From positions 11,286,001 to 11,350,000 of the forward strand of contig CM075994.1 in the NCBI GenBank assembly GCA_038087875.1: DNA of 64,000 nt. Direction: 5' to 3'. The notes under the pieces were generated by a model. The model did no database searches. It was not told the origin of the DNA and saw only the letters and a list, made by a program, of their open reading frames with translations. Source of the stretch: Malacoraja senta (Eukaryota). Shown here piece by piece: positions 2,270-27,900 of this stretch (positions are counted from its first letter, which is position 1; each line of letters opens with the position of its first letter). The position numbers and the translations under genes were made by a program.

Positions 2270-2362
2270 ATTGACATTTCGGGTCGGGATCATTCTTCAA
2301 ACTATCTGAAGAAGAGTCTCTACCCGAAACGTCAACTCCATCCCCAGATGCTGGTTGACCCG
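2270..2362. repeat. Short inverted pair of Penelope-type terminal repeat fragments containing a hammerhead-like motif
   Basis: gacatttcgggtcgggatcattcttcaaac followed by ctgaagaagagtctctacccgaaacgtc, an imperfect reverse complement; same family as 16428-16520, 30479-30551 and 36725-36945. Confidence 0.55.
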
Positions 2363-2529
2363 AAATTGGTCGGATATCAGTAATCAGTTAGATATAACAT
2401 TATTATTGCAAAAAGAACAACATTCACTGTAGGAACAACTACATTTTTGAAAATAATTGAATGGTTTTAAGAAATAGATAAATCGGAATTTCGCAATCTC
2501 ATATCCCGTCTCACCATTTAGATATAGCT

Positions 2530-2676
2530 GTTAGGGCTAACTGAATCAAGGGATATGGAGGGGAAAGCAGGAACGGGGTACTGATTCTGGATGATCAGCC
2601 ATATTTGTATTGAATGGCGGTGTTGGCTCAAAGGGCTTAATGGCCTACTCCTGTATATATTGTCTATGTTTCTATG
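2530..2676 (+). mobile_element. CR1 LINE 3' end fragment
   Basis: Matches CR1 3' ends at ~16000-16135 and ~24060-24190 (gatcagccat...gaatggcggtg...ggcctactcctg...tctatgtttctatg tail). Confidence 0.75.
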
Positions 2677-3329
2677 CTTAGACTGATTTCACTTGATCTG
2701 CACTCGTGCAATCTCAGTCCGGATGAAGGATCTCGATCCGTCAATCTCCAAACTCAATCTTAATCTCCGGTGTCTGTGTTTTCTGAAACATTTGTCCTCG
2801 AAACATTGAACACAAAAATAGACAGTACACCATAATCCGCTTACTGCGCTGTTACTTTCGAATTTATCATATTGCGTGCGTGCGGAGTACTATCGGCAAT
2901 GACAATTGTTGCAAGCAAAATAAATAATTAAGATAACGTGAAAATTAAATCTTACTGTGCCGTTGCTGGGAATTGCAGTTAGGCTGCCCTTCAGAAACCA
3001 AAATAATCACGTTCCATATAAAGGTGGAAAGAGAATTCCTGCCAGGATTTTTATTTGAGTATCCTTCACAGTCATCATGGATACGTGATATTGTGTGGCC
3101 ATTTTTTGGCGACAATGCAGGTGATTGTTGTGATACAAATTAATGAATCGACATTAAGGCCATGAATGCCGAGAGATATCATTAGCTGAGGAAGCATGGT
3201 AATCTTATAGATGTTTCTAGGGAAGTGTGTATCACGATATTCCTCATCAGTAATGTCACCCGAAATATAGACGAGAACCTTGACTATTCAATCCCTATAA
3301 GACTGCAGACTGATTAACAGTTTTCTGGT

Positions 3330-3676
3330 TTAAAAGCATTATATATGAATACGCGATGTATAAGAAATAAAGTGGATGAACGAGGCTCAGTTAGAGATTG
3401 GTATATATGACATTGTGGGGATTACAGATACATGGCTGCAGGAGGACTAGGGTTGTGAACTGAGTATTCAGGGTTATACGTCCTTCAGAAAGGACAGGCG
3501 GGTGGGCAGAGGAGGTGGGGTAGCTCTGTTGGTGAGGGATGAAAAGTAGACCCTTGCGAGGGACGACATAGGGACTGGAAATGAGGAATTGTAAAGGTAA
3601 GAAGACACTAATGGGAGCTATTTACAGGCCCCCACGCAGTAGCCGGGATATAGGGTACAAGTTGCAGCAGGAGTTA
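3330..3676 (+). mobile_element. CR1 LINE (host copy 1), endonuclease part, decayed; first of three segments
   Basis: Decayed APE motifs LYMNTRCIRNKVDE, DIVGITDTWL, RKDR..GRGGGVALLVR, GAIYRPP; homologous to 17560-17760; continues at 9979. Confidence 0.85.
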
Positions 3677-3847
3677 GACTAACAGACGTGCACCCAGCTC
3701 CTCTCCCGAAAAACTTCACGATTTATCGTGTAAAACGGGTCCGAAAATCGGGATTGTTTTTAAAAACCTTACCGGAGCTTCTGGTTACCGCGCTGATGAC
3801 GTCATCGTTAAACGCGATGTTTTAAACGGTGGTTTGAAGCCCTTTGA

Positions 3848-4918
3848 ATGAGTAAATTGACTCCAGCTGTGAGCCCTCAGAGAGCTGTGAATAAACTGTC
3901 GAAACAGTTTGAAACTGAAGTTACCTCTGAAGTCTCTGAAGTGGCTGCAGAAATGGATACAAGATCTAAGAAAGACTTTGATGACTTGAAAAAATCAATG
4001 AAAAATTTGAAAGATGAGATCTCGGATAATAGGGTGGAAGATAAGAAGGAAATGAAGGAAAATTCGGCAAAAATGATGGAAGGAATGCAGAAGATGATGA
4101 AGGATTTAAATGCTGGTAACCAGAAGAATATGACGGATTTACTGGACACTATGAATAAACGAATTGATGAGGTGAAAGATGGACTATCAGAGAAAATGGA
4201 TAAGATGGATGTAATTACTACGGATAAGTTCACGGCTGTACTTGAAACAGTAGCTGCAAGTATGCAGACAATCACGGAATTGGAGAAAAATACGGCACGA
4301 CTTGTTGAAGACATGGCGAAACTGAGGCAAGAACATGAGCAAATGAGGCGAGAAAACGAACAAGCATCACTACAAATGGGGACTCAATTAGAGAAAGTCT
4401 CATTCAAATGCCTGGACCTGGAAGCTCGTTCTAGACGCCAGAATCTGAGGATTCTTGGTGTTTCAGAGGGGGCAGAAGGGGAACAGGTACGTGAATTTGC
4501 CATGGGCTTGTTGAAACAACTGTTGAATCTTCCCAAGGAACCGAAAATCGAAGTGGCTCATCGTGTCCCAAGATTTGGAAAAAGATTTGATGCGGGAAAA
4601 GCTTATCCACGACATATTATAGTGAAATTTCGAGATACTGCAGAACTGGAATATGTTATGACCCATATCAAATATGGTGTACAATTACGGCTGGACAAAG
4701 ACACTATTAAGATATTCAGGGACTACCCACATGAAATTGTGCAAAAAAGAAACAAATTTGATAAGGTTAAAGATCTTTTAAGAGGGAGAGAAGGGGTCAG
4801 ATTCGGGGTTTTTTATCCCGCTAAAATGCGTATTTCTTTTAATGGTCTTGAAAAGTCATTTGTTAAGCCTGAAGACGCTTTCAAATATGCCCAAACGATT
4901 GTTGAAAGACAGAAATAA
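3848..4918 (+). CDS. L1 ORF1 protein (coiled coil + RRM + C-terminal domain), 356 aa
   Basis: Heptad-rich N-terminal half, then DLEARSRRQNLRILGVSEG, IEVAHRV, PRHIIVKF, IFRDY, YPAKMRI motifs typical of L1 ORF1p. Confidence 0.93.
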   Translation: MSKLTPAVSPQRAVNKLSKQFETEVTSEVSEVAAEMDTRSKKDFDDLKKSMKNLKDEISDNRVEDKKEMKENSAKMMEGMQKMMKDLNAGNQKNMTDLLDTMNKRIDEVKDGLSEKMDKMDVITTDKFTAVLETVAASMQTITELEKNTARLVEDMAKLRQEHEQMRRENEQASLQMGTQLEKVSFKCLDLEARSRRQNLRILGVSEGAEGEQVREFAMGLLKQLLNLPKEPKIEVAHRVPRFGKRFDAGKAYPRHIIVKFRDTAELEYVMTHIKYGVQLRLDKDTIKIFRDYPHEIVQKRNKFDKVKDLLRGREGVRFGVFYPAKMRISFNGLEKSFVKPEDAFKYAQTIVERQK

Positions 4919-5723
4919 AAGGGAGCTTTGGCAGATCCGAATAATTCTCAGCTATGTTTTGTCTGGGGATAGTTACACTGTTATCTCCGGAATGTTGAAG
5001 CAAGGACATTTTCTGTTCAAAACGTGTAAACAACTTTATAACGGGATATGAATTAGAAAATAATTGCTTATTGATTAAAATGTTATAACCAATTGTAAGA
5101 ACTTATCCTATTAACAACTTTAAAAGTTATGCAGGTTAGATTAGAATACTAACAAAAAAAACAAAAAAATAATGAACTAACATACTAATATGAATTTTTA
5201 ATAAATTGTAACCTTGTCTATAAGCAGGAGGAGGGGATGAGAAACGAGCTCCTGGCTTATGTCCAGGAGCACGTCTCGTTAACCCCTTCAACCAACAGCT
5301 GATTCTGATTGAAATCAAAAATATTGGTTTAATAATTAAACTCTGATATATATATATGTTATAAGGAAATATCAGGGTAAAATTGTATTATATATATGAA
5401 TGTGAGGCCTCGTTTTAATATTTTAATATGTTATGATTAACTAAGAGAGCGGAGCGAGTTGAGCAACAACGCAATGGAAGTCAAAATAAGGTTTTTTCCC
5501 ACCTACAGGTGGGTCACTTGCTACAGTGCCGACTATAGACACTGTAGCCTCACTCTTTTAGTTTTTTTTTTATTACATAAAATCACTTGTTTGTGTTTTG
5601 TGTTTAGTGATAAGAATAATATGGACATACCAACAAAAGTTAATAATTCAAAAACTCCCCCAATACCTAAAGACCTGGGATATGGACGCACCACAAGATT
5701 CAAAGGTACTATAATTATTCAAA

Positions 5724-8700
5724 ATGCATGACACCACACAAAAGAACCTAGGAGGAGTCTCATTTTGTAGTTGGAATATAAGAGGCATTAATGAACCTAT
5801 CAAAAGGGGTAAGATATTAGCTCAGCTAAAAATGTATAATTCTGACATTACCTTCCTACAAGAAACACACCTAAAACCTCAGGACCAAGTTAGGCTGAGG
5901 GCGAAATGGATAGGTCAAACATACCACTCTTCATTCACTTCAAAATCTAGAGGCACGTCAATTATCATAAGAAAAGGTATACCATTTAAAGCAAAGAATA
6001 TTATAACAGATATAGAAGGGAGATACCTAATAGTTAATGGAGAAATCCATGACACTCCACTTACTTTGGTAAATATATATGCCCCTAACTTTGATAACCC
6101 CCACTTTTTCAATAAAATCTTCAATATAATTGCAGAGTCAAACTATCAAAATGTTATAATAGGCGGAGACTTTAATTGTGTTTTAGACCCGTACTTAGAT
6201 AAATCAAGTCAAAAACAGAGAGGGAATATGAAATCGAAAACTGGGGAACTCCTCAATACCTACATAAACAACACTAATATAGCAGATGTTTGGAGAATTG
6301 TGAACCCAACTGGCAGGGAATATTCGTTTTACTCAATGGTACATAAGACATACTCACGTATAGACTATTTTCTGCTGGATACAAAATTAATCCCCCAAAC
6401 ATCTAATGCAATATATCATACAAATTCAATTTCAGACCATTCTCCACTAACTTTCTTTTTAAAACTGGAAGGATTGTCTAAGAATAATTCATTCTGGAGA
6501 TTTAACTCTCAAATTTTAAAAGATCCACAAGCGAGTATATATTTAAAAGAACAAATGGAGGTCTTTTTTCAAACAAATGATACTTCAGATATATCGCCTA
6601 CTTTACTTTGGGAATCTTTTAAAGCATACATTAGGGGTATTATAATTTCATATCAAGCTTTTCAAAATAAAAAGAATAAGAATGAACAAAGACAGTTAGA
6701 AGAACTTATTAGACAAATGGATATAGATAATGCTAAAGATCCAACAATAGATAAACATAATAAAATAATAATTTTAAAATTTAAATTAAATAAATTATTA
6801 TCTGCCAAACTTATAAGACTTTTTCAAATTACAAAACAAGAGCACTTTGAATTTGGGGATAAACCGCATAAACTTTTGGCTCGCCAGCTAAAAAAACGAG
6901 AAAAGGAACATACTATACCAAAGATCAAATCAGATAAAGGGGAATTATTAACAACACCGAAGGATATTAATAAAAGATTTGCGCAATTTTACGAGAATTT
7001 GTATACATCTAAAACGATAATTGATTCCAATAATATCACAAAGTTCTTGGATACCTGTAATCTTCCAAAGTTAGAGCTGAAGGAACAAGAGGAACTGGGT
7101 GCACAAATCTCAATTAAGGAATTAGAAGATACAATAAACTCACTAAAAAATGGAAAAACACCAGGCCCTGATGGATTTACTAATGAATTTTATAAAAACT
7201 TTTATGAAAAAATAATACCAAGATTACAAAAAATGTACCAATACGCTTTTAAAAAACGAATACTACCTGATACATTAGCGGAATCAACGATTACATTAAT
7301 ACCTAAGAAAAATAAGGATTTAGAAGATCCTGGCTCATATAGAGCTATAGCATTGTTAAACACAGATCAAAAAATATTAGCGAAAACATTAGCCAGAAGA
7401 TTAAGTAAATACATTAGTAAATTAATAAACCCAGATCAGACAGGGTTTATCCCTAAGAGATACTCTTCTAATAATATGAGACGTCTACTCAACATAATGC
7501 ACTCACACAAATCTGAAGATCAAGAATTATCAATTATTTCGCTGGATGCTGAAAAAGCATTTGATCAAGTAGAATGGAATTATATGGATAAAGTATTACA
7601 AAAATTTCAACTGGGAGAGAATTTTATTTTATGGATTAAGTTACTATATAACAAACCTACAGCTAGAATACTTACTAATAACATATTATCCTCGAAATTT
7701 CAACTATCAAGGGGAAATAGACAAGGATGCTCATTATCACCACAGCTGTTTGCTCTCATTATTGAACCGCTAGCAGAAAAAATTAGAATACACCCTGATA
7801 TTCATGGATATAATACTAAAGACTCATATAATAAAATATCTTTATACGCGGATGATATATTATTGTATATTACAAAACCTCAAATCACTATACCAAATAT
7901 ATTAAATTTAATTGAAGACTTCGGATCTTTTTCTGGATATAGAATAAATTGGAATAAAAGTGAAATCATGTCAATAAAACCGAAAGATTCAACACATCTT
8001 TTAAAATTCCCTTTTAAAATAGCTACAGAAAAATTTAAATATTTGGGAATCGAAATTACCAGAGCATATCAAGGTATGCTCAGGGCAAATTTTGACCCCC
8101 TACTTAATAAACTGAATACATTAATTAAATTCTGGAAAACGCTTCCGATGTCTTTAATAGGCCGAATAAACGCAATAAAAATGATCTTTTTACCACAAAT
8201 TTTATACCTATTTCAATCAATTCCTATATACTTACCTAAGAAGTTTTTTAAAAAACTCGACTCAGATATCACTAATTTTATATGGGACTATAAATCACAT
8301 AGAATACAAAAAACCCATCTGAATAAATCTAAAGTATTGGGGGGTCTAGCACTACCCAATTTTATGTATTATTATTGGTCAGTAAATATTAAAAACATGA
8401 TTCAACTGATGGATAACTCCGCCCAGCAAGTAGACTGGATTGTAATGGAGAAAGAGGATTGCTCCTCTAGAAACATTGGAGCGATCCTCCTCTCTCCAAT
8501 GAAATTGAATAACATAAACTATAATAAGAACCCAATTATTCATAGTACAATCCGTATTTGGAAACAAATAAAACAAAATTTAAAATTAAGAAACTTATCA
8601 CTTTTATTACCTATAGTCAATAACCCTTCGTTTAGTCCTTCTATTATAGATAAAGCTTATACACAATGGGATAGACTAGGAATTAAAACGCTTGGTGACT

Positions 8701-9515
8701 TGTATGAAACTGGAAAATTACTTTCATTTCAACAATTACAAATAAAATATAAACTCGGAAATAATCAATATTTTAAATACTTTCAAATATGCGACTATTT
8801 GAAAAAATATATAAAAGATCATCATAATAACCCAGCAGATGTACTGGACGAGGCAATGCAGACAAAAGCGGAATCAGCAAACTTAATATCATATTTGTAC
8901 AATATTATCTTAAATGTACAAATACCATCTACGGAGGGTATCAGAAGAGACTGGGAACAAGAGTTAGCTATTAAAATTTCAAAGGAAAGTTGGAATGAAT
9001 ACTTATTAAAAGTACATAAATGCTCGATTAATGCAAGACACACTTTAATACAATTTAAAATTTTACATAGATTATATTATTCGAAAACTAAAATTCATAA
9101 AATTTTCCCAAACGTATCATCTATTTGTGATAAATGTCAATCCCAAGAAGCAACTATAGCGCACTCATTTGTCTTCTGTACAAAAATTCAAAAATTTTGG
9201 AATGAAATTTTTGAAATTTTTACAAAGTTATTTAAAACAAGACTGATACCCAAAGCAGAATGGATTATCTTCGGAATAACGGAAGATGATCCAGAACTAA
9301 ATGTGTTTCAAAAGAAATTAATGGATTATGGGTTAATAACTGGAAAAAAGCTAATTCTAAAATTTTGGAAGAAGGCTCCAATACCAACTATAAATATGTG
9401 GATTTCAAATATGTTTGAAACACTACACCTTGAAGAGATAAGACTCCTCCTAGCAGGTAAACCAGATCACTTCCACCTGACGTGGTCTGCATTTATAGAA
9501 TTATTACAAACATAG
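5724..9515 (+). CDS. L1 ORF2 protein (APE endonuclease, reverse transcriptase, C-terminal Cys-rich motif), 1263 aa
   Basis: SWNIRG, LQETH, GGDFN, SRIDY, SDHSP (endonuclease); PGPDG, SLDAEKAFD, RQGCSLSP, LYADD, KYLG (RT); CDKC..H..FC; uninterrupted. Confidence 0.96.
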   Translation: MHDTTQKNLGGVSFCSWNIRGINEPIKRGKILAQLKMYNSDITFLQETHLKPQDQVRLRAKWIGQTYHSSFTSKSRGTSIIIRKGIPFKAKNIITDIEGRYLIVNGEIHDTPLTLVNIYAPNFDNPHFFNKIFNIIAESNYQNVIIGGDFNCVLDPYLDKSSQKQRGNMKSKTGELLNTYINNTNIADVWRIVNPTGREYSFYSMVHKTYSRIDYFLLDTKLIPQTSNAIYHTNSISDHSPLTFFLKLEGLSKNNSFWRFNSQILKDPQASIYLKEQMEVFFQTNDTSDISPTLLWESFKAYIRGIIISYQAFQNKKNKNEQRQLEELIRQMDIDNAKDPTIDKHNKIIILKFKLNKLLSAKLIRLFQITKQEHFEFGDKPHKLLARQLKKREKEHTIPKIKSDKGELLTTPKDINKRFAQFYENLYTSKTIIDSNNITKFLDTCNLPKLELKEQEELGAQISIKELEDTINSLKNGKTPGPDGFTNEFYKNFYEKIIPRLQKMYQYAFKKRILPDTLAESTITLIPKKNKDLEDPGSYRAIALLNTDQKILAKTLARRLSKYISKLINPDQTGFIPKRYSSNNMRRLLNIMHSHKSEDQELSIISLDAEKAFDQVEWNYMDKVLQKFQLGENFILWIKLLYNKPTARILTNNILSSKFQLSRGNRQGCSLSPQLFALIIEPLAEKIRIHPDIHGYNTKDSYNKISLYADDILLYITKPQITIPNILNLIEDFGSFSGYRINWNKSEIMSIKPKDSTHLLKFPFKIATEKFKYLGIEITRAYQGMLRANFDPLLNKLNTLIKFWKTLPMSLIGRINAIKMIFLPQILYLFQSIPIYLPKKFFKKLDSDITNFIWDYKSHRIQKTHLNKSKVLGGLALPNFMYYYWSVNIKNMIQLMDNSAQQVDWIVMEKEDCSSRNIGAILLSPMKLNNINYNKNPIIHSTIRIWKQIKQNLKLRNLSLLLPIVNNPSFSPSIIDKAYTQWDRLGIKTLGDLYETGKLLSFQQLQIKYKLGNNQYFKYFQICDYLKKYIKDHHNNPADVLDEAMQTKAESANLISYLYNIILNVQIPSTEGIRRDWEQELAIKISKESWNEYLLKVHKCSINARHTLIQFKILHRLYYSKTKIHKIFPNVSSICDKCQSQEATIAHSFVFCTKIQKFWNEIFEIFTKLFKTRLIPKAEWIIFGITEDDPELNVFQKKLMDYGLITGKKLILKFWKKAPIPTINMWISNMFETLHLEEIRLLLAGKPDHFHLTWSAFIELLQT

Positions 9516-9927
9516 GGTGCAAAAGTACTTTAAAAAAATAAAAAATTGAGGTCGGGTAAGGGGGGATGATAGTTGAAGAGTTGGTATGTCCTATTTACGT
9601 GATGCTCAAAAAAAAAAACATTTGTTTTTCTTTTTTTCTCTCTCTCTTTTCTTTTCTTAGGGCCTATTTCTTAACTCTTTTTTTTTTTGTTTTTAATTTC
9701 GCTTTCATAGGGTCCTCGTCCTTTTTTTTTTTGTTGTTACATTTTCTACACTTTTCTACACTTGCACTTTTTCCTTCACTTTCTTCTCTCTTTCAATCTT
9801 TTCTTTCTTTAGCGTAAAAAAAATAAATAAAGGGAGTACATTAATTGTAAGAAGATATAAATGACGAGTATTAATGTATGTGGCTGTGATGTAATGTACT
9901 TCTAATAAATAAAAATTAATAGATAGA

Positions 9928-9973
<46 letters not shown>

Positions 9974-9978
9974 AGTTA

Positions 9979-11640
9979 AAAATGTCATGTGACAAAGGTA
10001 ATGCCACTTTGGTTATGGGAGATATCAATATGCAGACTGGGAATATCAGGTTGAGTCTGGACCCCAAGAAAGGGAGTTTGTAGAGTGCCTCCGAGATGGG
10101 TTCTTAGAGCAGCTTGTTTTGGAGCCTATCTGAGAGAAGGCAATTCTGGATTTAGTGTTGTCTAATGAGCCAGATTTAATAAGGGAACTCAAGGTAAAGG
10201 AATCGCTCGCGGGTAGTGACCCTAATATGATAAGTTGTATCTGCAATTCGAGAGGGAAAAGGTTAAATCAGAATTGTCAGTGTTGTATTTGAACAAATGG
10301 GACTATGAAGGCATGAGAGAGGAACTGACCAAGGTCGGCTTGAAAAGGATCCTAGCAGGAATGACGATGGAACAGCAATGGCAGGTATTTCTGGGCATAA
10401 TCCAGAAGATGCAGGATCATTTCATTCCAAAGAGGAAGAAAGATTCTAATGGGGAGTAATAGGCAACCGTGGCTGACAAGCGAAGTTAGGGACGGTAGAA
10501 AACTCAAAGAAAAGAAGTATAATATCGCAAAGAGTAGAGGAAAGCCAGAGGATTTGGAAACTTTCAAAGGATATCAGAAGGTAACTAAAAGGGCAATACG
10601 GGGTGAAAAGATGAAGTACGAAGTTAAGTTTGCCAATAATATAAAGAAGGATAGTAAAAAGCGTATTTAGGTGTGTTAAGCGAAAAAGATTAGTACAGAC
10701 AAATGTGGGTCCCTTGAAGACAGAAACAGGTGAAATTATTATGGGGAACAAGGAAATGGCAGAAGAGTTGAACAGGGACTTTGGTTCTGTCTTCAATAAG
10801 GAAGACACCAACAATCTCCCAGATGTACTAGATGACAGAGGATCTAGGAAGACAGAGGAACATAAATAAATGTGCATTAGACGAGAAATAATATTGGGTA
10901 GACTGATGAGACTGAAGGCTGTAAAATGCCCATGACCTGATGGTTTGGGCATCCTAGGGTACTAAAGTAGGTGGCTCCAGAAATCGTTGACGCATTGGTG
11001 ATCATTTCCCCATTTTCTTTTGATTCAGGAACTGTTCCTGTTGATGGAGGGTTGCTAAAATTATCACCATTTTCAAGAAAGGAGCGAGAGAGAAAACGGG
11101 GAATTATAGACCAGTTAGCCTGACATCGGTGGTTGGGGGTGAAGCTGGAGTCAATTATTTAAAAAGTAATAACGGCGCATTAGGATGATAGTAATAGGGT
11201 TGGTCGAAGTCAGCATGGATATATGAAGGGGAAATCCTGCTTGACTAATCTTCCGGAATTTTTTGAAGATGTGACAAGTAAAATGGATGAAGGAGAGCCA
11301 GTGAATGCAGTGTATCTGGACTTTCAAAACGCATTTGATAAGGTCCTACACAGGAGAATAGTGGGCAAAATTGGAGCACTTGGTATTGAGGGTAGGGTAA
11401 GCCATGGATTGAGAATTGGTTGGCAGGCAGGAAACAAAGAGTAGGAATTAACGGGTCCCTGTCAGAATGGCAGACAGTGCGAGAGGAGTGCCGCAAGGCT
11501 CGTTGCTGGGGCCACAGCTATTTACAATGTACATTAATGAATTGGATTATGGAATTAAAAGTAACATCAGCAAATTTGCAGATGACACAAAGCTAGGTGG
11601 CAGTGTGAAATGCGAAGAGGGTGTTAGGAAGTTGCAGGGT
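9979..11640 (+). mobile_element. CR1 LINE (host copy 1), middle segment, decayed ORF2
   Basis: Fragments PWLTSEV, NYRPVSLT, GKSCLTNL..FFE, YLDFQNAFDKV, GVPQGSLLGPQLF, KFADDTKLGG with stops and frameshifts. Confidence 0.9.
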
Positions 11641-14262
11641 CATAAAATTAGAACAGAGACAGGAGAATTATTAAAAATGCCCAAGGACAAAAATGATAGA
11701 TTTCTCCAATACTATCATAACCTTTATTCAACTAAAACCGAAGGACAATCAGAAGGAATAGCAGATTTTTTACTAAAATGTAATTTAAAATGTTTAGATT
11801 CAAACGATAGAGAATTATTAGAAAGGGAGATTACCATAAAAGATATTGAGGAGTCTATTGGCTCTTTAAAAAATGGTAAAGCAGTAGGACCAGATGGTTT
11901 AGGCTCTGAATTTTATTTAAAAAATTATGATTTGCTTTGGCCACGTTTACAAAGACTGTATGAGTATATCTATACTCAACAGAAACTTCCAGACACTTTA
12001 AATGAATCTATAATAACACTTATTCCTAAAGCTGATAAAGATCCGGAAGACCCGGGATCATATAGAGTAATTGCACTTTTAAATACAGATCAGAAAATAT
12101 TAACTAAAATACTAGCGCGTAGATTAAGTACAGTGATGAATAAATTAATACACCCTGACCAAACAGGCTATATTCTGAAACGGTACTCATATTATAATCC
12201 AAGAAGATTATTTAATATTATATATTCCAAGAGAATTATTAATGAAGATCTAGCAATAATCTCACTTGACGCTGAAAAAGCATTTGATCAGGTCGAATGG
12301 TCTTATTTATTTTCGGTGATGGAAAATATGCAGCTAGGGGAGAAATTCTGTACATGGATAAAACTGTTATATACAAATCCCACGGCTAGAATATTTACAA
12401 ACCAAAGGTTGTCATCTAAATTTAGCCTATCTAGAGGTTGTAGACAAGGATGCCCGTTATCTCCATTATTATTTGCGCTTGCTATTGAGCCACTTGCAGA
12501 AAGAGTCAGGGGGCATCCGGAAATACACGGATATAACACAAAGGACACAGTGAATAAAATTTCTCTATACGCAGATGATGTATTAATTTACATTGCAAAA
12601 CCAGAAATTAGTATTCCAAACTTATTAAAGCTAATAACCCAATTTGGTTCACTTTCAGGATACAGAATAAATTGGAATAAAAGTGCAATTATGCCAATAA
12701 GGGAACATAACAAACAGATAATACAACAATTTCCATTTAAAATAGTAAAGGAAAAATTTAAATATCTAGGTATTTATGTAACTAAGATATATACATCATT
12801 ATTTAAAGCAAATTTTCCACCATTACTGAATAAACTACATAAGAATATTAAATACTGGAAAACACTTCCTATCTCAATGGTTGGCAAAATTAATGCCATA
12901 AAAATGATTTTTTTACCGCAAATATTATACCTTTTTCAGACAATTCCGATATATCTGGCAAAAAACTTTTTTTTTAAACTGGACTCTATTGTTAATGATT
13001 TTATCTGGGATTATAAGAATCATAGGATAAACAAAAGACATTTGTGTAAATCAAAAATAAATGGAGGCTTGGTTTTACCCAACTTTTTGTTTTATTTCTG
13101 GGCAGTTAATATTAAAAATATGAATTTCTGGTTGGAAGAAATAGATCATCAACCAGACTGGTTAAAAATGGAAAAGGAAGATTGTTTACCTTTTGATATC
13201 GGTTCGATATTATTTGCTACGTCTAAATTAAACAAAAAAATTTATAGGGAAAACCCTATAATATTTAGTGCTATACGAATTTGGAAACAATTAAAAAAGA
13301 CATTAAAATTAGATAATTTATCACTTTTTCTTCCAATTGTGAATAACCCTTTGTTTAAGCCATGGTTGGACGGGGGTTTTACACAATGGAAGAATTATGG
13401 AATTAAAAATATGGGACAACTTTACAAGGAAGGCACTTTTCTGACATTTCAGGAGTTGCAACAGACTTATGGACTTCGAGGAAATGATTATTTCAGATAT
13501 CTTCAATTTAGAGATTATGTAAAATCGAATACTCAAAATTTTCGAATTAGAAATTCAGAAATTCTTGATGAATGTTGGAACAAACATCCTAATACAGAAA
13601 AATTAATATCTTATATATATAATATCTTATTAGACAGTGACATTCCATCGACGGACTTACACAGACAAACATGGGAAAAAGAATTAAATCAAATAATAAC
13701 CAAAGATACTTGGGAAGAAAGTTTGCAACACATACATCAATGTTCATTAAACGCTAGACATTCTCTAATACAATTTAAAGTAATACATAGGTTACATTAT
13801 TCAAAAACAAAACTACTTAAAAATGTTCAACATATCTCACCTATATGTGATAAATGTCAACATTTAGAAGCTACCTTATCTCATATGTTTGCAAACTGTA
13901 TAAAAATTAAAACGTTCTGGGTAAATATTTTCAGTATAATATCTAAAGTAACCAGCACACAATTGGACCCAGATCCAAAATTAATAATACTTGGAATATT
14001 AGAATTAAATCAAACATTTAGAACAACACAAAGAAACTTTATTGATTATAGTTTAATAACAGGAAAAAAATTAATTCTAAAATTTTGGAAAGGCCCTACG
14101 ACCCCCACAATCAAAATGTGGATTATAGAAATGACGGAGACCTTAAACGTGGAAAGAATCAGATTCTCCCTGTTGGACAAACAGGAATTATTCGTTGGAA
14201 CATGGTCTCCTTTTATTGATTACTTAAAGGGTCAGAACAGTTCAGCACAGGAACCTGACTAG
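11467..14262 (+). CDS. Chimeric open frame: 58 codons of CR1 RT fused in frame to truncated L1 ORF2 (RT + Cys-rich domain, no endonuclease)
   Basis: GVPQGSLLGPQLF..KFADDTKLGG..RKLQG (CR1), then from 11641 L1 sequence with SLDAEKAFD, RQGCPLSP, LYADD, CDKC; expression not supported. Confidence 0.6.
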   Translation: MADSARGVPQGSLLGPQLFTMYINELDYGIKSNISKFADDTKLGGSVKCEEGVRKLQGHKIRTETGELLKMPKDKNDRFLQYYHNLYSTKTEGQSEGIADFLLKCNLKCLDSNDRELLEREITIKDIEESIGSLKNGKAVGPDGLGSEFYLKNYDLLWPRLQRLYEYIYTQQKLPDTLNESIITLIPKADKDPEDPGSYRVIALLNTDQKILTKILARRLSTVMNKLIHPDQTGYILKRYSYYNPRRLFNIIYSKRIINEDLAIISLDAEKAFDQVEWSYLFSVMENMQLGEKFCTWIKLLYTNPTARIFTNQRLSSKFSLSRGCRQGCPLSPLLFALAIEPLAERVRGHPEIHGYNTKDTVNKISLYADDVLIYIAKPEISIPNLLKLITQFGSLSGYRINWNKSAIMPIREHNKQIIQQFPFKIVKEKFKYLGIYVTKIYTSLFKANFPPLLNKLHKNIKYWKTLPISMVGKINAIKMIFLPQILYLFQTIPIYLAKNFFFKLDSIVNDFIWDYKNHRINKRHLCKSKINGGLVLPNFLFYFWAVNIKNMNFWLEEIDHQPDWLKMEKEDCLPFDIGSILFATSKLNKKIYRENPIIFSAIRIWKQLKKTLKLDNLSLFLPIVNNPLFKPWLDGGFTQWKNYGIKNMGQLYKEGTFLTFQELQQTYGLRGNDYFRYLQFRDYVKSNTQNFRIRNSEILDECWNKHPNTEKLISYIYNILLDSDIPSTDLHRQTWEKELNQIITKDTWEESLQHIHQCSLNARHSLIQFKVIHRLHYSKTKLLKNVQHISPICDKCQHLEATLSHMFANCIKIKTFWVNIFSIISKVTSTQLDPDPKLIILGILELNQTFRTTQRNFIDYSLITGKKLILKFWKGPTTPTIKMWIIEMTETLNVERIRFSLLDKQELFVGTWSPFIDYLKGQNSSAQEPD

Positions 14263-15251
14263 CACCCGGGCTAAAGAATGGATGAAATGCTATATTTAGA
14301 AATGTACGAATATATCTCGAATGAAGTTTTCTATTTTAATAATTTTTTCCATTCTTCTTTAACTATCTTTTTTCTTTTTTCTTTATTTATTTATTTATTT
14401 TTTGTTTTTCTTCTCTTTCTTTTCTTTCTTTACTTCATCTTTCTCTTTAGTTCTATTTAGTTTTTTTTTTTAAAGGCAAAAGGTATTGGAGACAATGTAA
14501 TAATAATTGACAATATTATCAATTTAAAAATGTAAGACTGTAATGATGTAACTAGGTTGTGTACGTATCTCCAATAAAAAAATATTAAAAAAAACAAAAA
14601 AAAAACATTACATCATGGAATCAGGTCTTATATAATTGATTGCTAGATCATCTGAATGTATAGTCAGAGCCACTGGATACCATGGATACCAATATTACTG
14701 AACCTTCATCATGTCCATTTGCACGCTGATCTCAGATACGAGAGTTAGAACAAAGAGAGCTCTGGCGTAGGGGCACCGACAACAAAGAGGAACCATTGGG
14801 GATTGTAATGAATACTTTGCCTGCACCATATAGGTGGTACCTTGTGTATAGTATGCAAAATAAAGAATTTCACTGACACGTCAAAAATAAATTGCAAAGC
14901 TTCAAGAAGACAGTAAGGGATAGGTAGAGTGCTTATGACACTTACTGCAGTATACTTTAGTCCGATTCTGTTCTCTGTTGTCAAAGGACAAATGACAATC
15001 GTAGAACAATAAAATAAGGTGGAATTGAGCTGTGTTGTCTCTTTTGGAGGTGCATGATTTTCAATTGTTGTAAAATTATTCGGAGGAAGGAAAAATGCTT
15101 AAGTGCCTTACACAATAAACAACACATCAAAGAAAAATTCTATATATAAGTAGATGAATCGTTGTTTGTTGAGCAATCTCCAAGATTGCTCCCAGTATTC
15201 ACTGTATTTGACGCTGAAATAAAGTTTTGATTGCCTTGAAAAAAAAGAAGA

Positions 15252-15280
<29 letters not shown>
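11641..15280 (+). mobile_element. 5'-truncated L1 of a second subfamily with apparent 3' transduction
   Basis: L1 ORF2 from HKIRTETGELL to stop at 14262; AATAAA 14573 and A-tail 14587-14605; extra 14606-15238 segment; second AATAAA 15218 and A-rich tail 15239-15280; 15-bp TSD AGGAAGTTGCAGGGT at 11626-11640 and 15281-15295. Confidence 0.93.
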
Positions 15281-15282
<2 letters not shown>

Positions 15283-15295
15283 GAAGTTGCAGGGT

Positions 15296-16135
15296 GACCT
15301 GGACAGGTTGAGTGAGAGGGCAGATGCATGGCAGATGCAGTATAATGTAGATACATGTGAGGTTATCCACTTTGGAGGCAAGAACAAAGAGGCAGATTAT
15401 TATATCAATGGTGTCAGATTAGGAAAAAGGGAAGTGCAACGGGACCTGTGTTTCCTTGTACACCAGTCATTGAAACTAAACTTGCATTTACCGCAGGCTG
15501 CGAAGAAAGCTAATGGCATGTTGGCCGTCATAATGAGAGGATTTGAGTATAGGTCCTTCTGCAGTTTTACAGCGCCGTACTGAAACCACATCTGGAGTAT
15601 TGTGTGCACATTTGGTCTCCTAATTTGAGGAAGGACATCCTTGCTATTGAAGGAGTAGAGCGTAGGTTCACAAGGTTATTCCCGGGGGTGGCGGGACTGT
15701 CATAAGTGGAAAGATTGGAAAGACTGGGCTTGTATTGACTGGAATTTAGAAGGATGAGGGGGTATCTTGTAGAAACATATAAAATTATAAAAGGACTGGA
15801 CGAGCTAGATGCAGGAAAAATGTTCCCAATGTTGGGGAAGTCCAGAACCAGGGGCCACAGTCTAAGAATATAGGTGAGGCCATTTTAAACTGAGATGTGA
15901 AAAAGGTTTTGCATCGAGAAAGTTGAGAAATTCTCTGCCACGGAAGGCAGTGGAGGCCAATTCACTGGATGAATTTAGAATAAGATAGAGCTCGTGGAGC
16001 TGGCGGAATCAAGGGCTATGGGGAGAAGGCACTCATCTGATTGTGGATGATCAGCCATGATCACAATGAATGGCGGTGCTGTATCGAACGTCCGAATGGC
16101 CTCCTCCTGCACCTATTTTCTATGTTGCTATGTCT
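15296..16135 (+). mobile_element. CR1 LINE (host copy 1), 3' segment and 3' UTR
   Basis: Resumes DLDRLSERADAWQMQYNVDTCEVIHFG, PHLEYCV, TRGHSL; ends ggcctcctcctgcacctattttctatgttgctatg. Confidence 0.9.
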
Positions 16136-17554: not shown

Positions 17555-19312
17555 GACAGACCGGTGCACAGAGTGGGTGTGGTAGCTCTGTTGGTGAGAA
17601 ATGTAATTCAGTTCCTTGCGAGGGGTGACATAGATTCAGGAGATGTGTCAGTATGGATAGATCTGAGTAATTGTAAGGGTAAAACGACCCTAATGGGAGT
17701 TATCAACAGGCCCCCAAACGGTAGCTGGATATAGGGTGCAAGTTGAATCAAGAGTTAAAATTGGCATGTCATAAAGATAATGCAACGGTTGTTATTTGAG
17801 ATTTCAACATGCAGGTAGACTGGGAAAATCAGGTTGGTACTGGACCCCAAGAAAGGGAGTTTGAGGAGTGCCTCCGTGATGGTTTATTAGAGCAGCTTGT
17901 ATTGGAGCCTACCAGGGAGAAGGCAATCTTCGATTTAGTGTTGTGTAAGGAATCGGGTTTGATAAGTGAACTCGAGGTAATGGAGACATTACGAGGAAGT
18001 GAGCAAAATATGATAAGTTTTGATCTACAATTTGAGAGGGAGAAGGGTAAATCGGAGGTGTCAGTATTATAGTTGAACAAAGGGGACTATGGTGCCATGA
18101 GGGAGGAGCTGGCCAAAGTTGACTGGAAAGATACCCTAGTAGGGATGGGAGTGGACCAAAGATGACAGGTATTTCTGGGAATAATACAGAAGGTGTACAG
18201 AAGGTTCATTCCAAAGAGAAAGTCAGATTCTAAGGGGAGTAAAGGGCGGCCGTGGCTGACAAGTGAAGTCAGGGACAGTATAAAATTAAAAGAGAAGAAT
18301 TATAACATAGCATAGGTGAGCGGGAAGCCAGAGAATTGGGTAACTTTTAAAGAGCAACAGAATATAACTAAAAAGGCAATACGAGAAGAAAATATGAGGT
18401 ACGCGGATAAGCTAGCTACGAATATAAAGGAGGATAGTAAAAACTTCTTTAGGTATGAGAAGAGGAAACAAATAGTTAAGACCAAATTTGGAGAATTGAA
18501 GACTGAAAATGGTGAATTTATTATGGGGAACAAGGAAATGGCAGACGAGGTAAACAGGTACTATGGAACCGTCTTCACTAAGGAGGACACAAACAATCTC
18601 CCTGGTGTAATAGTGGCCATAGGATCTAGGGTGATGGAGGATCTGATGAAATGCACATTAGGCAGGACATGGTATTGGGTAGATAGATGAGACTGAAGAC
18701 TGATAAATCCCCAGGGCGTGATGGTCTGCATCCCAGGGTACTCAAGCAGGTGGCGCTGGAAATCGTGGATACATTGGTAATAATTTTCCAATGTTCTATA
18801 GATTCAGGATCAGTTCACGTGGATTAGAGGGTAGCTAATGTTATCCCACTTTAAAAAAAAAAGCGGGAAAGAAAAAACATGAAATGATAGACCAGTTAGC
18901 CTGACATCGGTGGTGCGGAAGATACTGGAGTCAATTGCAAAAGATCAAATAGCGGCACCCTTGGATAGCAGTAGCAGGATCGGTCCGAGTCAGCATGGAT
19001 TTATGAAGGGGAAATCATAGTTGACTAAATTTATGGAATTTTTTGAGGATGTAACTTGGAAAATGGACAAGAGAAAGCCAGTGGATGTAGTGTACTTGGA
19101 CTTTCATAAAGCATTTGATAAGGTCCCTCATAGGAGATTAGAGGACAACATTAGGGCACATGGTATTGGGGTAAAGAACTGACATGGATAGAAAATTGGT
19201 TGGCAGGCAGGAAACAAAGTGTAGGGATTAACGGGTCCCTTTGAGAATGACAGGCGGTGACTAGTGGGGTACCGCAAGGGTCTGTGCTGGGACCGCAGCT
19301 ATTTACAATAAA
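17555..19312 (+). mobile_element. CR1 LINE (host copy 2), 5' segment, decayed
   Basis: Homologous to 3490-3676 + 9979-11530; ends at GVPQGSVLGPQLFTI where the Helitron interrupts. Confidence 0.9.
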
Positions 19313-20533: not shown

Positions 20534-22930
20534 ACAAGTCAAGTCAAGTCAAATCAAGTAAAGTCAAGTCAAGTCAAGCACAGTGAGTGCAGTGCCAACA
20601 ATCCATTTCAAGTCAAGTCAAGTCAATCCATTTCAAGTCAAGTCATGTCAATTCATTTCACATCAAGTCCAGTCAAGTCAAGTCAATCCATTTCAAGTCA
20701 AGTAAATCCAAGTCAATCCAAGTCACTCCAAGTCAATCCAAGGCAATCCAAGGCAATCCAAGCCAAGCCAAGTCAAGTCAAGTAAAGCCAAGCACATCGC
20801 AAGCGGGGCCAACAACACAATCCATTTGCCAACAAAGTCAATCCATTTCAAGTCAAGACAATCCATTTCAAGTAAAGTCAAGTCAAGTCAATCCATTTCA
20901 AGTCAAGTCAATCCATTTCAGGTCAAGTCAAGTCAAGTCAAGTCGTCCAGCCATTTCAAATCAAGTCAAGTCAATCCATTTCAAGTCAATCCAAGTCAAT
21001 CCATGACAATCCACGTCAATCAAAGTGAATCCAGTTCACTCCAAGTCACTCCAATTCTCTCCTAGTCACTCCACGTCACTCCAAGTCAATCCAAGTCAAG
21101 TCAATCCAAGTCAATTCAAGTCAAGTCAAGTCAAGTCAATCCAAGTCAATCCAAGTCAATCCAAGGCAATCCGAGTCAATCCAAGTCATCCAAGGCAATT
21201 CAAGTCAAGCCAGGTCAAGTCAGGTAAAGCCAAGCCAAACACAGGGCAGGCGGGGACAACAATAAAATCCATTTGCTTTCATTTCAGGTCAAGCAAAGCA
21301 AAGGCAAAGCAAAAGCAAAAGCAGAGGGCAGGCGGGGCCAGCCAACAATGGAATTCATTTGCTCTCATTTCAGGACAAGCAAATCAAAGGCAAAGCAAAA
21401 GCAAAAGCACAGCGCAGGCGGGGGCAACCAACAATACAATCCATTTGCTATCATTTCAGGTCAAGCAAAGCAAATCGTCAAGTCAAGTTAAGTCAATCGA
21501 TTTAAAGTCAAGTCAAGTCAAGTCAAGTCAGGTCAATCTATTTCAAGTCAAGTCAAGTCAAGTCAAGTCAAGTCAAGTAAATCGATTTCAAGTCATGTCA
21601 AGTCAAGTCAGGTCAATCCATTTCAAGTCAAGTCAAGTCAAGTCAATCCAAGTCAATCCAAGTCAATCCAATTCAAGCCAAGCCAAGTCAAGTAAAGCTA
21701 AGCCAAGCACGGGGCAGGCGGGGCCAACAATACAGTCCATTTGCTTTCATTTAAGGTCAAGCAAAGCAAAGGAAAAAGCACAGGGCAGGCGGGGCCAGTC
21801 AACAATACAATCATTTTGCTTTCATTTACGGTCAAGCAAAGCAAAGGCAAAGCAAACCAAAAGCACAGGGCAGACGGGGCCAGCCAACAATGCAATCAAT
21901 TTGCTTTCATTTCAGGCCAAGCAAAGCAAAGGCAAAAGAGATTAGAGATTAGAGAGATTAGAGATTCCTTTATTTGTCATTCAGACCTTTCGGTCTGAAC
22001 GAAATTTCGTTGCCTGCAGTCATACATATAATAATAAATGACAAAACACACAATAAACACAAATTAACATCCACCACAGTGAGTTCACCAGACACCTCCT
22101 CACTGTGATGGAGGCAAAAGTCTTAAAGTCTCTGTCTCTTCCCGCTTTCTTCTCCCTCTGCGCTGAGGCGATCCAGGCTTCTGATGCTGTGACCCCGCCG
22201 GGCGACGGTAAGCCAGTCCAGCGGCCGAATCCGTGCTCCGCGACGGGCCGGCTCAAACTCCGCGGCCCGGGGTGGTCGAAGCTGCCGAAGCTGCCGCCCT
22301 CCAGTCCAGCGGACGCAGCTGTAGTTGCGGGAGCCCCAGAAAAACAGGTCACCAACCTGTGACCTGCGCGCTCCCGACGATGTCGTCCACTGGGCCCGCG
22401 GCCGAGCCTCCGGATTCAGGTCGCCACCAGTGTCCTCGGTCGCCACCGCCGGAACGCCACCGCAGCCCCGAAGTTGGCCAGCCTCGCGGTGGTAAGTCCT
22501 GGCTCTGCCTCCGGAGCCTCGAGGTCGGTCGGTCGCAGTTGGAGTTGGAGGCCGGCAGCTCCGCCATTTTGGCCTCGGCGCAGACGGAGGCAGAGAAGGG
22601 GAACACGACAAGAAAAAGTCGCATTCCCCCGAAGGAAGAGACAAAAGTCATGTTTCACCCCCCCACCCCACACATACACAACCCAATAAACTAAAATTTA
22701 ACTGAAACAGGACAAAAGAAAACAACAAAAAAAGTAAAAACAGACGGACTGCAGGCGAGCCGCTGCTGTACGACAGCGCCGCCACTTCCGGAATTCCGAA
22801 AAAGCTCAGGGAAGGCGGGGCCAGTCAACAATACAATCCATTTGCTTTCATTTCAGGCCAAGCAAAGCAAAAGCAAAAGCACAGGGCAGGTCAAACAAGT
22901 CATTGCATTTTCATTTCATTTCCATTTCCA
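20534..22930. repeat. Compound (CAAGT)n / (CAAAG)n satellite with a longer ~60-75 bp unit, interrupted at 21938-22795
   Basis: Pentamer runs punctuated by aatccatttc, plus recurring aagcacagggcaggcggggccaacaatacaatccatttgctttcatttcagg. Confidence 0.9.
21938..22795 (-). mobile_element. ~860 bp non-coding retroposon (short Rex1-like derivative or SINE), present only in copy 1
   Basis: Absent from the paralogous array at 49150-50050; CpG-rich body; minus-strand 3' end gaaatttcgtt..hairpin..aatgacaaataaagg followed by a (tctctaa)n tail. Confidence 0.65.
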
Positions 22931-23433: not shown

Positions 23434-24192
23434 TATTATTAATTCAGATGAATGGATTACAGGTAACATTAGCAAATTTGCACATGACACAAAGCTGGGT
23501 GGCAGCTGTGAGGAGGATGCTATGAGAATGGAGGGTGACTTGGACAGGTTGGTTGAGTGGGCAGATGGCATGGCAGATGCAGTTTAATTTGGATAAATAA
23601 ATTATCCTTCTTTGGTAGCAAAATAGGAAGGCAGATTATTCTCTAAATGGTGTCAAATTGTGAAAACTGGAAGTACAACGGGATCCGGGGGTCCTTGTTC
23701 ATCAGTCAATGAAAGTAAGCACGCAGTAAGTAATCAGTTCACATGATTAATTCCCGGGGTGGTGGGACTGTCATATGCTAAGAGAATGGAACGGCTGGGC
23801 TTGTATATTCTGGAATTTAGAAGGGTGAGAGGGGATCTTATTGAAACATATAAGATTATTAAGGGTTTGGACACGCTAGAGGCAGGAAACATATTCCCGA
23901 TGTTGGGGGACTCCAGAACCAGGGGGCACTGTTTAAGAATAAGGGGTAAGCAGTTTAGAATGGAGATAAGGAAACAATTATTTCACACAGAGTGTTGTGA
24001 GTCTGTGGAAGCCGGTTTTCTGGATACTTTCAACAGAGAGCTAGATAGGGTTCTTAAAGATAGCGGAGTTAGGGGATATGGGGAGAAGGCAGGAACGGGG
24101 TACTGATTGTGGATGATCAGCCATGATCACATTAAATGGCGTTGCTGGATCGAAGGGTCGAATGGCCTACTCGTGCACCTATTGTCTATTGC
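23434..24192 (+). mobile_element. CR1 LINE (host copy 2), 3' segment
   Basis: GNISKFAHDTKLGG, ERLGLYILEFRRVRGDLIETYKII, TRGHCLRI and CR1 3' UTR; lacks ~180 bp retained at 50838-51020. Confidence 0.9.
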
Positions 24193-24673: not shown

Positions 24674-24743
24674 ATGAACAAGCCTGCACTCCTGAAGACC
24701 GAGAGTATTTACTATCCTATTCTTGCAATCATTGGAGTCCCAG
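24674..24743 (+). CDS. GPR139/GPR142-like GPCR paralogue 1, exon 1 (MNKPALLKTESIYYPILAIIGVP)
   Basis: ATG, 70 nt, strong donor CAG|GTAGGT, phase 1; joins exon 2 in frame to give TM1 YYPILAIIGVPANLVAILIL; not in the ORF track. Confidence 0.88.
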
Positions 24744-24913
24744 GTAGGTGAGCCAGAGAATGGTTTTACAGATGTACGTTGATGTGCTTGACAGACGATA
24801 TTGAACATCATGGCAAACATCTGAAAACATTACAGATTTATATGAAATTATTATTGCAAAGTGCTGTCAAAAACAAAGTATCGTGCTGATCTCACTTGTG
24901 TACTGGATCTAAA

Positions 24914-27900
24914 ATTTTACTTCGGAGTCACGTGAGTGACTACGTGAAGAAGCCCGTCAGTGCGCCTGCGCGTCATTACGGCAGACGCCTTGACGCAAAC
25001 GGACGTGAGGAGCAGTGCTCCTCGAGTGGTTTGTAGTTTTTCAACTACAAGGTAAGTAAAAACTTTTTTACAGGTTTTCCAGGTCCGTTTACTGTGGGTC
25101 TATGGCGATTTTTTCCACAGACGCCATGGGAAAAAACGGACAGGGGGAAGAGGCGAGCGACATAGCCGACAGAAGTCGGGAAAGTCGGGAGTCCGCGGTT
25201 AGAGACCAACCGCCTCTAAACCCCGGTACAGTCGCCAGCGGTGAGCATAGCGACTGTGGACCTGGGGGCTGGTGAAAACACAGTCAGTGCCTGTCGGGCA
25301 AAAGACAAAGTTTAAATCCCAACGGAGGGTGTCCCAGGCAATGAAGAAGCTCCAGGGCTAGATACTGCTTTAAAGCGTATTGCCCAAATAGAAAGCCTTT
25401 TACACAGGCTGTTGGAGCAACGTTCACTCAGTGAGGAGTGTTCTGAAAGCCAAGCTGCTGGAAACAGCTCAAACAGCTCCTGGTACAGGGCTAGATACTG
25501 CTTTCGAGCGTATTGCCCAAATAGAAGCCTTTTTCATAGGTTGTTGGAGCAAAAGTTCACTCAGGAAGGAGTGTACTGTAATCCAAGCTGCAGGAGCAGC
25601 TTAACAGCACCTGGCTCAGGGCTGATGGAATGCACCCTCAGGAATGAGGAGCGTGCTACGGGTCATGAGATTTCAGACCCCGACTCTGACGGTGAGGCTG
25701 TACAAGGCGATGAAAGGCAGCTGCCAGATGTTCCAACCCTGGTAGTAGGATTCGCTGCCCCGTCAGGGTCAGGAGAGCCATTAGGAAGAACTGGCCTCCT
25801 TAATAAATTACTTGGTTTACCATTAGCTGGAACAGCATGAAATGGATGAGACTGCAAGAGTATCTGGAATCAGTTGCAGAGAATATTAAAGCTGCTGGGT
25901 TCTGAAATAACTGCTTTTACCAGAATAGCAGTTAACAACCAAAAGATGACGAAGTTGCATCAGCAAGCACTGGGGTTGCTATGCAGCACCCACTTCGAGA
26001 AGTGCTATACGGTCTACTATGAATCCGAAATTCGCAGCACTCTGCAAACCAAGTAATATACAAATTTCCCAACTTACTCTTTGGAGAGATCTCGGGAGAC
26101 ATATTAAAGAGTTGGAAGATGAAGCGAAAACAGGATTGATGAAGACATCAATGGTTGTGAAGTCTGTAAAGAGGAAGTATCCTTTCAGACATCATACGGA
26201 TCCTGGACCAAGTCGCTCATCAACGCAGGGACGTAGTTGGCGGCCTGCAGCGGGAGCAAGAACCAGTGGGCGTGCTTCCGGGAGAACCCAGGAATCTCAG
26301 GGTACTGAAATGACTCAAGAGGTAGGTGGACCTGGTTCTCATGGGAACATACTAACTGGATTAAGTCCAAAAGTTGGAGGCAGGTTACATTTCTTCTATA
26401 ATAATTGGAAGAAAATTACTTCAGATGTGGTAATCCTGAATAATATACAAGGATTTCGAATTGAATTCAATCCAAATTATGATTTGCCTGTTCAGCATGT
26501 TCCTAGCCGAACTCTGCACTTTGTACAAAAAGAAGTGATGGAGGTTCAGGTTGCAATTGAAACCCTATATAAAAAAAAGGGGTTATTGAAAAATCAGTCT
26601 ACCAAAGTCACCAATTTGTGTCAAAAATATTCCCTCGATCAAAAAAGGATGGAGGATGTAGGATTCTTGTAGATTTGATAAATCTGAATCCTTTTGTGCA
26701 ATTTAGACATTTTAAAATGGAAACATTTGTGATTGCCAAACAGCTTATTTCAGAAGCATGTTATATGGCAACCATAGACTTGAAAGATGCATATTATTCA
26801 GTGTCTGTTCATTCACAAGATAGGAAGTATCTTAAATTTAATGGATGAACCAGTTGTGGCAGTTCAAAGCTCTGCCTAATGGGTTAATATCTGCACTCAG
26901 AATATTCACAAAAATTGTTAAAACCAATTCTGGGCTTGCTGAGTAGCCAGGGGCATGTACTAATGGCATATTTGGATGATGTCTTGATTATAGGAAAGAC
27001 AAAACAGTCAACAGAAGTATCTGTTGCAGTTGTGAAATCAACTTTTGAAAAGTTGGGGTTTCTAATTCATCCACAGAAATCTAGGTTAACACCATGTACC
27101 TCTATTAATTATTTGGGGTTCACAATTGATTCAGTCCAAATGAATATCACTTTGCCCAGGGAAAAGGGTGGATTTGATTAAAGATTGCAGTAATCTCCTA
27201 AACGAGCAAAAACCTTCAATTAGACAGGTGGCTCGTGTACTGGGAAAATTAGTAGCAGCATTCCCAGCAGTCCAATTTGGACCATTACATTATCAACAGC
27301 TGCAGAGACTTAAAGAACAGGCACCGAGAATGCATGTTGGTCATTTTGATAGAACCATGCAACTAACAACAAATGCTGTTTCTGGTCTGCAGTGGTGGAT
27401 TCTACATGTCTCAAGCAGTTCCAGCAAAGTGCTGATTGAACAACCTTCCATGATATTACAAACTGATGCCAGTGCACCAGGATGGGGTGCAACTGACTTA
27501 ACGTCTAGCTGAGGAGGCAGATGGAATCAGGAAGAGTCATTGTTACTGCAGACATGGGGAATTAACTATTTGGAGCTGCTAGGATGGTTCTATGGGCTCC
27601 AAGCTTATTGTTCTAACACAACTAATAAGCATGTTCAAGTTCAAATTGATAACACAACAGTAGTTGTTTATATTAATGATATGGAATTAAGTCGGTGTCT
27701 TGTGACAAAATGGTTAATCAATTTTGGGCTTGGTGTATTGAAAAGAACATTTGGATTTCAGCTATCTATCTACCAGGTAGAATGAACGATAGCAGACACC
27801 AAGTCACGAAAAGTTCCATGATAATAAAGAATGGATGTTGAATCAAGAGGTATTCAAGGATATAGTCATCAGATTTGGAATGACCGACATCGACTTGAAT

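Follow-up and report, generated by a model that had tools for sequence, protein, structure and literature searches.

An insert in the window, the 64,000-nucleotide stretch of Malacoraja senta DNA analysed here, is very probably best read as a partnered L1 3' transduction, in which a 5'-truncated L1 was copied together with 633 bp of non-L1 DNA, hereafter the tag. The observations behind this reading are a single target-site duplication (TSD) lying inside an old CR1 element, a tag that is not L1 3' UTR, and homologues of the tag that stand in other flanks; the source element, its RNA and the order of events we infer from them. The moved DNA looks inert and holds no exon, and a single event of this kind is of little biological weight. 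Its modest value lies in the lineage and in a hint of recent, perhaps polymorphic, L1 activity.

The L1 copy, its target-site duplication and the host CR1

The inserted L1 starts with the reverse transcriptase and C-terminal part of ORF2 (11641-14262, plus strand; 873 codons, 0 stops), the endonuclease part being absent through 5' truncation. This frame matches residues 393-1251 of human L1 ORF2p (E 2.7e-112) and RVT_1 (E 1.9e-38); the best five of ten PDB sequences are human L1 ORF2p at E 1e-102 or better, and R2-type proteins rank below, at E 1e-22 or weaker. By sequence similarity, the reverse transcriptase and C-terminal part being most L1-like, we assign the element to the L1 (LINE-1) clade, and its 3' end, with AATAAA, poly(A) and a TSD, is as that clade requires. 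Among the best 120 of 785 relatives of this ORF2, the nearest full-length sequences are about 50% identical, two partial ones are 75-76% identical, and those with names come from bony fishes. The 3' UTR that follows (14263-14572, plus strand) is T-rich (48% T, 25% GC) and of fish type, and it leads into the L1's own AATAAA at 14573 and first A-rich tail (14573-14605, plus strand).

Beyond this tail come the tag (14606-15238, plus strand; 37% GC), whose last AATAAA (15218-15223, plus strand) stands 15 nt upstream of a second A-rich tail, and that tail itself (15239-15281, plus strand), which is 43 nt long, 91% A and G-patterned, holding an 11-bp unit in 4.3 copies. Between 11561-11680 and 15201-15340 the longest exact match is 15 bp, AGGAAGTTGCAGGGT, found at 11626-11640 and 15281-15295 on the plus strand with 15/15 bases identical; a match of at least 15 bp between the junction regions arose in 2 of 5000 Markov-shuffled controls. 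The second tail ends on the very A with which the 3' copy starts, so the duplication measures 14-15 bp. This one TSD encloses everything: L1, first A-tail, tag, second AATAAA and second A-rich tail. Around the L1 alone there was no match of 6 bp or more, and around the tag alone the sole candidate matches were runs of 9-10 A. An all-A duplication around the tag alone may exist, but the tag as a separate element with its own TSD, a possibility raised by the initial annotation, finds no support beyond these pure A runs. TT stands directly before the 5' copy, and TT followed by a purine-rich target would be an L1-endonuclease-like site.

The host is an old CR1-like LINE. Its left part (9979-11625, plus strand), recognised by similarity to the window's CR1 copies, has many stops, is 77-78% identical to copies at 17779-19309 and 46482-47944, and has a piece of reverse transcriptase at 11452-11640; its right part (15296-16132, plus strand) carries on the frame from 11640. 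When the insert and one TSD copy are removed, the CR1 frame is open across the site without a stop, and the joined flanks are colinear, the joint being free of indels, with two CR1 copies that carry no insert, at about 50560-50740 and about 23450-23640. The initial annotation had described the L1's AATAAA and A-tail, a non-L1 segment after it, a second AATAAA with an A-rich tail, one 15-bp TSD around all of these and the exact resumption of the CR1 frame, and each of these features was borne out. The L1 also lies in frame with its host, which gives a 936-codon CR1-L1 frame at 11452-14262 (plus strand). A CR1-L1 fusion gene over this ORF was rejected as a one-in-three accident in a stop-filled host, whose joined pieces hold 50-68 stops per frame.

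The same host CR1 holds a second L1 at about 3677-9971 (plus strand), which is full length and belongs to a different subfamily (58% amino-acid identity between the two ORF2 frames). Its ORF1 (3953-4918; E 7.6e-8 against L1 ORF1p) and ORF2 (5724-9515) are both stop-free, an endonuclease domain is present, and it ends in a 43-A tail with an 8-bp TSD (3669-3676, 9971-9978) and no tag; by these features it is a candidate recently active element. Elsewhere the window holds a segmental duplication (17104-37114 against 45806-63999) with blocks 90-98% identical and insertions that differ per copy, and long, degenerate CAAGT 5-bp arrays at 20535-21938 and 49152-50060, which have repeat units of 85-86 bp and adjoin CA-rich tracts. 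A tyrosine-recombinase ORF (58025-59578) lies in an element at 57515-61400 (minus strand) that also has RT-like frames and, close to its end, short inverted repeats, presumably a DIRS-type retrotransposon, and an inverted relative of this element, 68% identical, is found at 26642-29707.

The tag and its depth in public sequencing runs

Within the window the tag has no similarity to L1 and no further copy: one 21-bp blastn match (E 0.033) and two nhmmer matches (E 2 and 4.1) were taken as chance. The longest sense-strand stop-free stretch is 48 codons, Rfam gave 0 matches in the window, tag included, and across the ORF scan, Rfam and 120 GPCR relatives no exon or coding sequence moved by L1 was found in the tag. 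It amounts to unremarkable genomic DNA in low copy, with pieces of old repeats in it and nothing that looks coding, and is probably non-coding passenger DNA without function. The earlier suggestion that L1 can shuffle flanking DNA in this lineage therefore does not extend to functional shuffling, the tag being without a coding or RNA-family match.

A GPR139-like exon in the tag was rejected, the best tblastn match of 120 relatives having E 0.003 and an internal stop; the GPR139-like first exons proper map to 24674-24745 and 51961-52032, away from the tag. The window carries a cluster of GPR139-like seven-transmembrane receptor genes at 33419-34390 and 55292-56263 (plus strand) and 44919-45791 (minus strand), in which two second exons are intact and a further copy is broken. 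Among the best 120 of 911 relatives of one receptor gene all visible species are shark, ray or skate, mostly labelled GPR139-like, which points to a cartilaginous fish as the host, and the cluster would by this measure belong to an expanded cartilaginous-fish family. One GPR139-like database protein model, P0112, has an initial peptide that matches CR1 ORF2 at 23504-23551 and 50612-50662, and its first exon was probably mis-annotated from CR1 ORF2.

Words of the tag were sought in 24 listed public runs, none recorded as RNA: 23 of them contain all or part of the tag, one contains at least half of its words, the share is small (0.03-0.12) in 21, and one has next to none. Contigs of four of the 24 runs were placed on 14050-15480 at 85% likeness, with the repeat stretches 14360-14440 and 15235-15288 masked. 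X1 and X2 come from organism A, the best-matching (shares 0.71 and 0.41), and X3 and X5, from organisms B and C respectively, belong to the small-share runs; X2 was 88% read, with 41% of sampled words. The contig view took in 32 of 41,315 pieces, 24 of 1,211 loose ends, 40 of 91 variant places and 15 of 28 joints.

Depth changes abruptly where the L1 ends. Summed contig depth, which is no copy number and whose coverage holes carry no meaning, is about 1e5 in X1 and 1-4e5 in X2 at the ORF2 end and 3' UTR, against 18 and 141-227, respectively, over 14626-14769. Six ORF2/3' UTR bins compared with the tag give ratios of 5290-10229 in X1 and 657-2355 in X2, that is, 657-10229 across 12 bin comparisons in two runs. 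Related subfamilies and overlapping contigs inflate the L1 depth, though hardly a thousandfold. Zero cover over 14626-14769 in X3 is an uninformative hole. The tag lies outside the normal 3' end of the family.

Two parts can be told apart within the tag. Its low-copy part (14606-14769, plus strand) has depths of 18 (X1), 141-227 (X2), 32-36 (X5) and 0 (X3), and the remainder up to 15213 (14770-15213, plus strand) is made of old medium-copy repeat pieces, with depth peaks to 507 (X1) and 8441 (X2), numerous diverged contigs and skip joints. A loose stretch that departs from the tag at 14875, among the 24 of 1,211 loose ends viewed, has a terminal short tandem tail, and the piece near 14800-14890 presumably resembles the 3' end of an L2/CR1-type LINE, tandem tail included. 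A medium-copy repeat family over 14884-15213 is common to organisms A, B and C, with deletions that vary and, in some copies, an extra piece of 37-40 nt at 15018-15020. The repeat-like depth stops near 15213, upstream of the tail, and in X2 it is back to 146 at 15217-15219, so the second AATAAA and tail do not form a shared terminus of that repeat family. Five AATAAA occur within the tag (14859, 14886, 15008, 15114 and 15218), which by density alone gives about a 15% chance of a terminal AATAAA at that distance; the one at 15218-15223 is weak evidence for polyadenylation and may have been the polyadenylation signal of a read-through RNA.

Tag homologues and the origin of the insert

Homologues of the tag, about 93-95% alike, occur in two other organisms and continue there into other DNA. 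In organism C (X5) one contig, 488 nt long and at depth 37, aligns with 14602-14907 starting at its base 187; 14 letters differ and 16 are gaps. Its first 186 letters fit neither the window nor its L1, and, lying in one unbroken contig, they would argue against a young high-copy L1 end at that site. The homologue begins precisely where the final four A's of the first tail do (14602-14605), as would be expected if the source L1 had hit an AAAA target and the tag were led by the downstream TSD copy; 5' microhomology could also produce this start. A 290-nt minus-strand contig from the same organism fits 15116-15234 with 177 letters left over, which would lie past the tag's 3' end, the coordinate convention being judged from another contig. 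In organism B (X3) an 822-nt contig at depth 10.3 fits 14884-15234, with 20 other letters and 8 gap letters, and then runs on for 479 letters more. Among the pieces viewed, neither contig has a second placement on the window's CR1. The tag thus has, per these contigs, a native locus that continues on both sides.

For organism A, an X1 contig of 334 nt (depth 18.2) matches the window with 0 differences from 14576, in the L1 tail, to 14909, in the tag, and is unbroken at 14602, so the joint between L1 tail and tag exists in public data. A second X1 contig covers 14965-15234 and differs there at 1 position; the 33 letters at its end fall in the masked stretch. The insertion is recent: two stretches compared with X1, which is possibly the window's own sample, show 0 differences in 334 bp and 1 in 270 bp, the TSD copies are identical and ORF2 is unbroken. 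With 4.7% of weighted substitutions creating a stop in ORF2, the unbroken frame bounds neutral divergence at about 2.4% or less (95%).

X2 is more varied. One of its contigs, at depth 137, begins at 14602, the boundary seen in organism C, as it would if the same species also had the site without the L1. A bubble at 14693-14807 has a form identical to the window at depth 113.6 and a form with 4 differences at depth 35.9. At 15061, 15074, 15085 and 15110 all X2 depth carries a non-window letter, and the window's form of 15048-15110 was not seen in X2 (88% read), which as a coverage hole proves nothing but sits awkwardly with a tidy reading. Joint contigs that look locus-like reach depths of 3.1-4.5 in three of four X1 rows, and over eleven X2 rows their median is 33. 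Tag depth seems to exceed the single-copy level by a factor of four to five in X1 and X2 and of two to four in X5. Behind this raised depth there may be sibling copies of the transduction, a dimorphic source, or a native site that lies in a duplicated block, of which the window itself has examples; a duplicated native site would blur the reading. Among the 32 of 41,315 pieces viewed, organism A showed no L1 tail followed by tag and a non-A continuation, which would be the direct mark of a source locus.

Under partnered transduction, a full-length L1 of the same subfamily would have entered low-copy DNA at an AAAA target once organism C had split off. Its transcript would have read through its own weak AATAAA, the A-tail and four further AATAAA, to be cleaved and polyadenylated 15 nt past the AATAAA at 15218-15223. 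ORF2p would then have opened a nick in the CR1 at TT/AGGAAG and begun target-primed reverse transcription at the new tail, halting after about 3.64 kb, at 11641, with 5' truncation and the 15-bp duplication as the outcome. The initial annotation had likewise read the insert as a read-through 3' transduction, and the TSD, the depth drop and the homologues in other flanks now support it. It is possible, if rather less likely than the alternative, that the tag flags a still-segregating active source L1 with several sibling copies in cartilaginous fish; this more tentative reading draws on the raised tag depth, on the L1-less break and 3:1 bubble in one sample, and on the intact L1 1.7 kb away.

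The most serious competitor to partnered transduction, unlikely in our judgement though not negligible, is that two RNAs were involved, either through a 5'-truncated retrocopy of a polyadenylated cellular RNA that later landed in the last A-run of the L1 tail with an all-A TSD or through a switch of the reverse transcriptase, within one insertion, from an RNA of that kind to the L1 RNA. Two RNAs would give the identical layout in the window and would equally predict that homologues in organisms B and C have other flanks; the four shared A's could be the 5' microhomology of such an event, the two tails share all-A matches of 9-10 bp, and the L1-less form apparently present in X2 suits it as well. 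For a retrocopy, however, a second insertion into a 10-base A-run would, going by human L1 rates, be far less likely than read-through, and a duplication reaching beyond the A-run would put the start of the outer TSD before the tag, where it is absent. In X1 the sole contig that covers 14626-14769 extends back into the L1 tail without interruption or branch at 14602, which speaks against two RNAs of either kind, although low coverage could hide a branch.

It also should be considered that the second tail is native, an A-rich microsatellite that followed the tag at its source and was taken along by internal priming or by a DNA-level break-repair copy. The repeating 11-bp unit would suit such a tract, and the comparison with the homologues ended at 15234, past which a native A-rich tract may lie. 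Against this, the clean 15-bp TSD at TT/purine, the AATAAA 15 nt upstream and the 5' truncation fit target-primed reverse transcription, and we hold a native tail to be very improbable; internal priming would itself count as a form of 3' transduction.

That the tag is simply an ordinary long 3' UTR of this L1 subfamily, a reading that the initial annotation had set against its own, is largely refuted and scarcely credible. From L1 3' end to tag the depth falls roughly 700- to 10,000-fold (at the boundary, from about 1e5 to 18 in X1 and from 1-3e5 to 141-227 in X2), the organism C homologues are without this L1 end upstream, and old repeat pieces lie inside the tag; the one point in its favour is that the window's other L1, being of a different subfamily (66.7% nucleotide and 58% amino-acid identity), is a weak control. 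An assembly chimera by way of the A-runs, which do stand at both ends of the tag and of which the second tail is crossed by no listed piece, is just as hard to credit, given that an X1 contig crosses the first joint with 0 differences and that the TSD and CR1 frame close the outer ends.

Comparison with known systems

The mechanism is textbook in humans and dogs, and the lineage is little studied for transduction. About 20% of human L1s are accompanied by 3' transduction, of up to 1.6 kb, according to the available text of PMC8232201, and polymorphic human L1 3' transductions measure 8-997 bp in the population map as given in the available text of PMC9311842; the partnered human form was described by Moran 1999, Goodier 2000 and Pickeral 2000, as cited in the available portions of PMC8232201 and PMC5381506. 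For dogs, the accessible part of PMC13756887 describes "parentless" 3' transductions from dimorphic source L1s. Section 13 of PMC5381506 gives zebrafish L1 3' UTRs as T-rich and ending in AATAAA and poly(A), and non-mammalian retrocopy numbers follow L1, as stated in the available text of PMC3136929. Of the cartilaginous fishes, elephant shark is dominated by L2 and CR1 (PMC5381603, available text), whale shark has LINE1 in introns of 56% of genes (10.1101/443036, available text), 14,081 retrocopies are counted for the group in the available text of a 2026 preprint (10.64898/2026.06.26.734816), and L1 of Chondrichthyes was scored as fragments only in a 2016 survey, by the accessible part of PMC5203782.

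A search by titles and abstract openings, a weak one in that most subscription journals lay outside it and 3' is unsearchable as a term, returned no report of L1 3' transduction in cartilaginous fish, and none is described for them in the available text of the fish and retrocopy papers cited above. In the accessible part of PMC5381506 transduction is mentioned for mammalian L1 only (2 occurrences) and sharks have 0 occurrences. If the transduction is real, read-through at the L1 poly(A) signal would be common to a very distant vertebrate lineage, and the tag would be a handle for tracing a recently active source L1 in cartilaginous fish. If the source were also still segregating, parent-offspring tracing of L1 would become feasible in a lineage that the survey in PMC5203782, to go by its available text, scored as holding fragments only.

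The insert resembles the dog "parentless" class in that the tag site has no upstream L1 in organism C, and perhaps none in organism A's X2. In dogs, by contrast, the source was found in another haplotype, whereas here we can only deduce it, and the native site may be multi-copy. With fish L1, as described in the available text of PMC5381506, it shares a T-rich 3' UTR, AATAAA and poly(A). It departs from the human system in its cartilaginous-fish host, in a fish-type L1 whose 3' UTR is T-rich, and in a source L1 that is deduced rather than seen. Like human partnered transduction, it combines a weak AATAAA and tail, a foreign tag, a second tail with an AATAAA 10-40 nt upstream of it, and a single TSD enclosing the whole, and the 633 bp of its tag fall inside the 8-997 bp range that the available text of PMC9311842 gives for humans.
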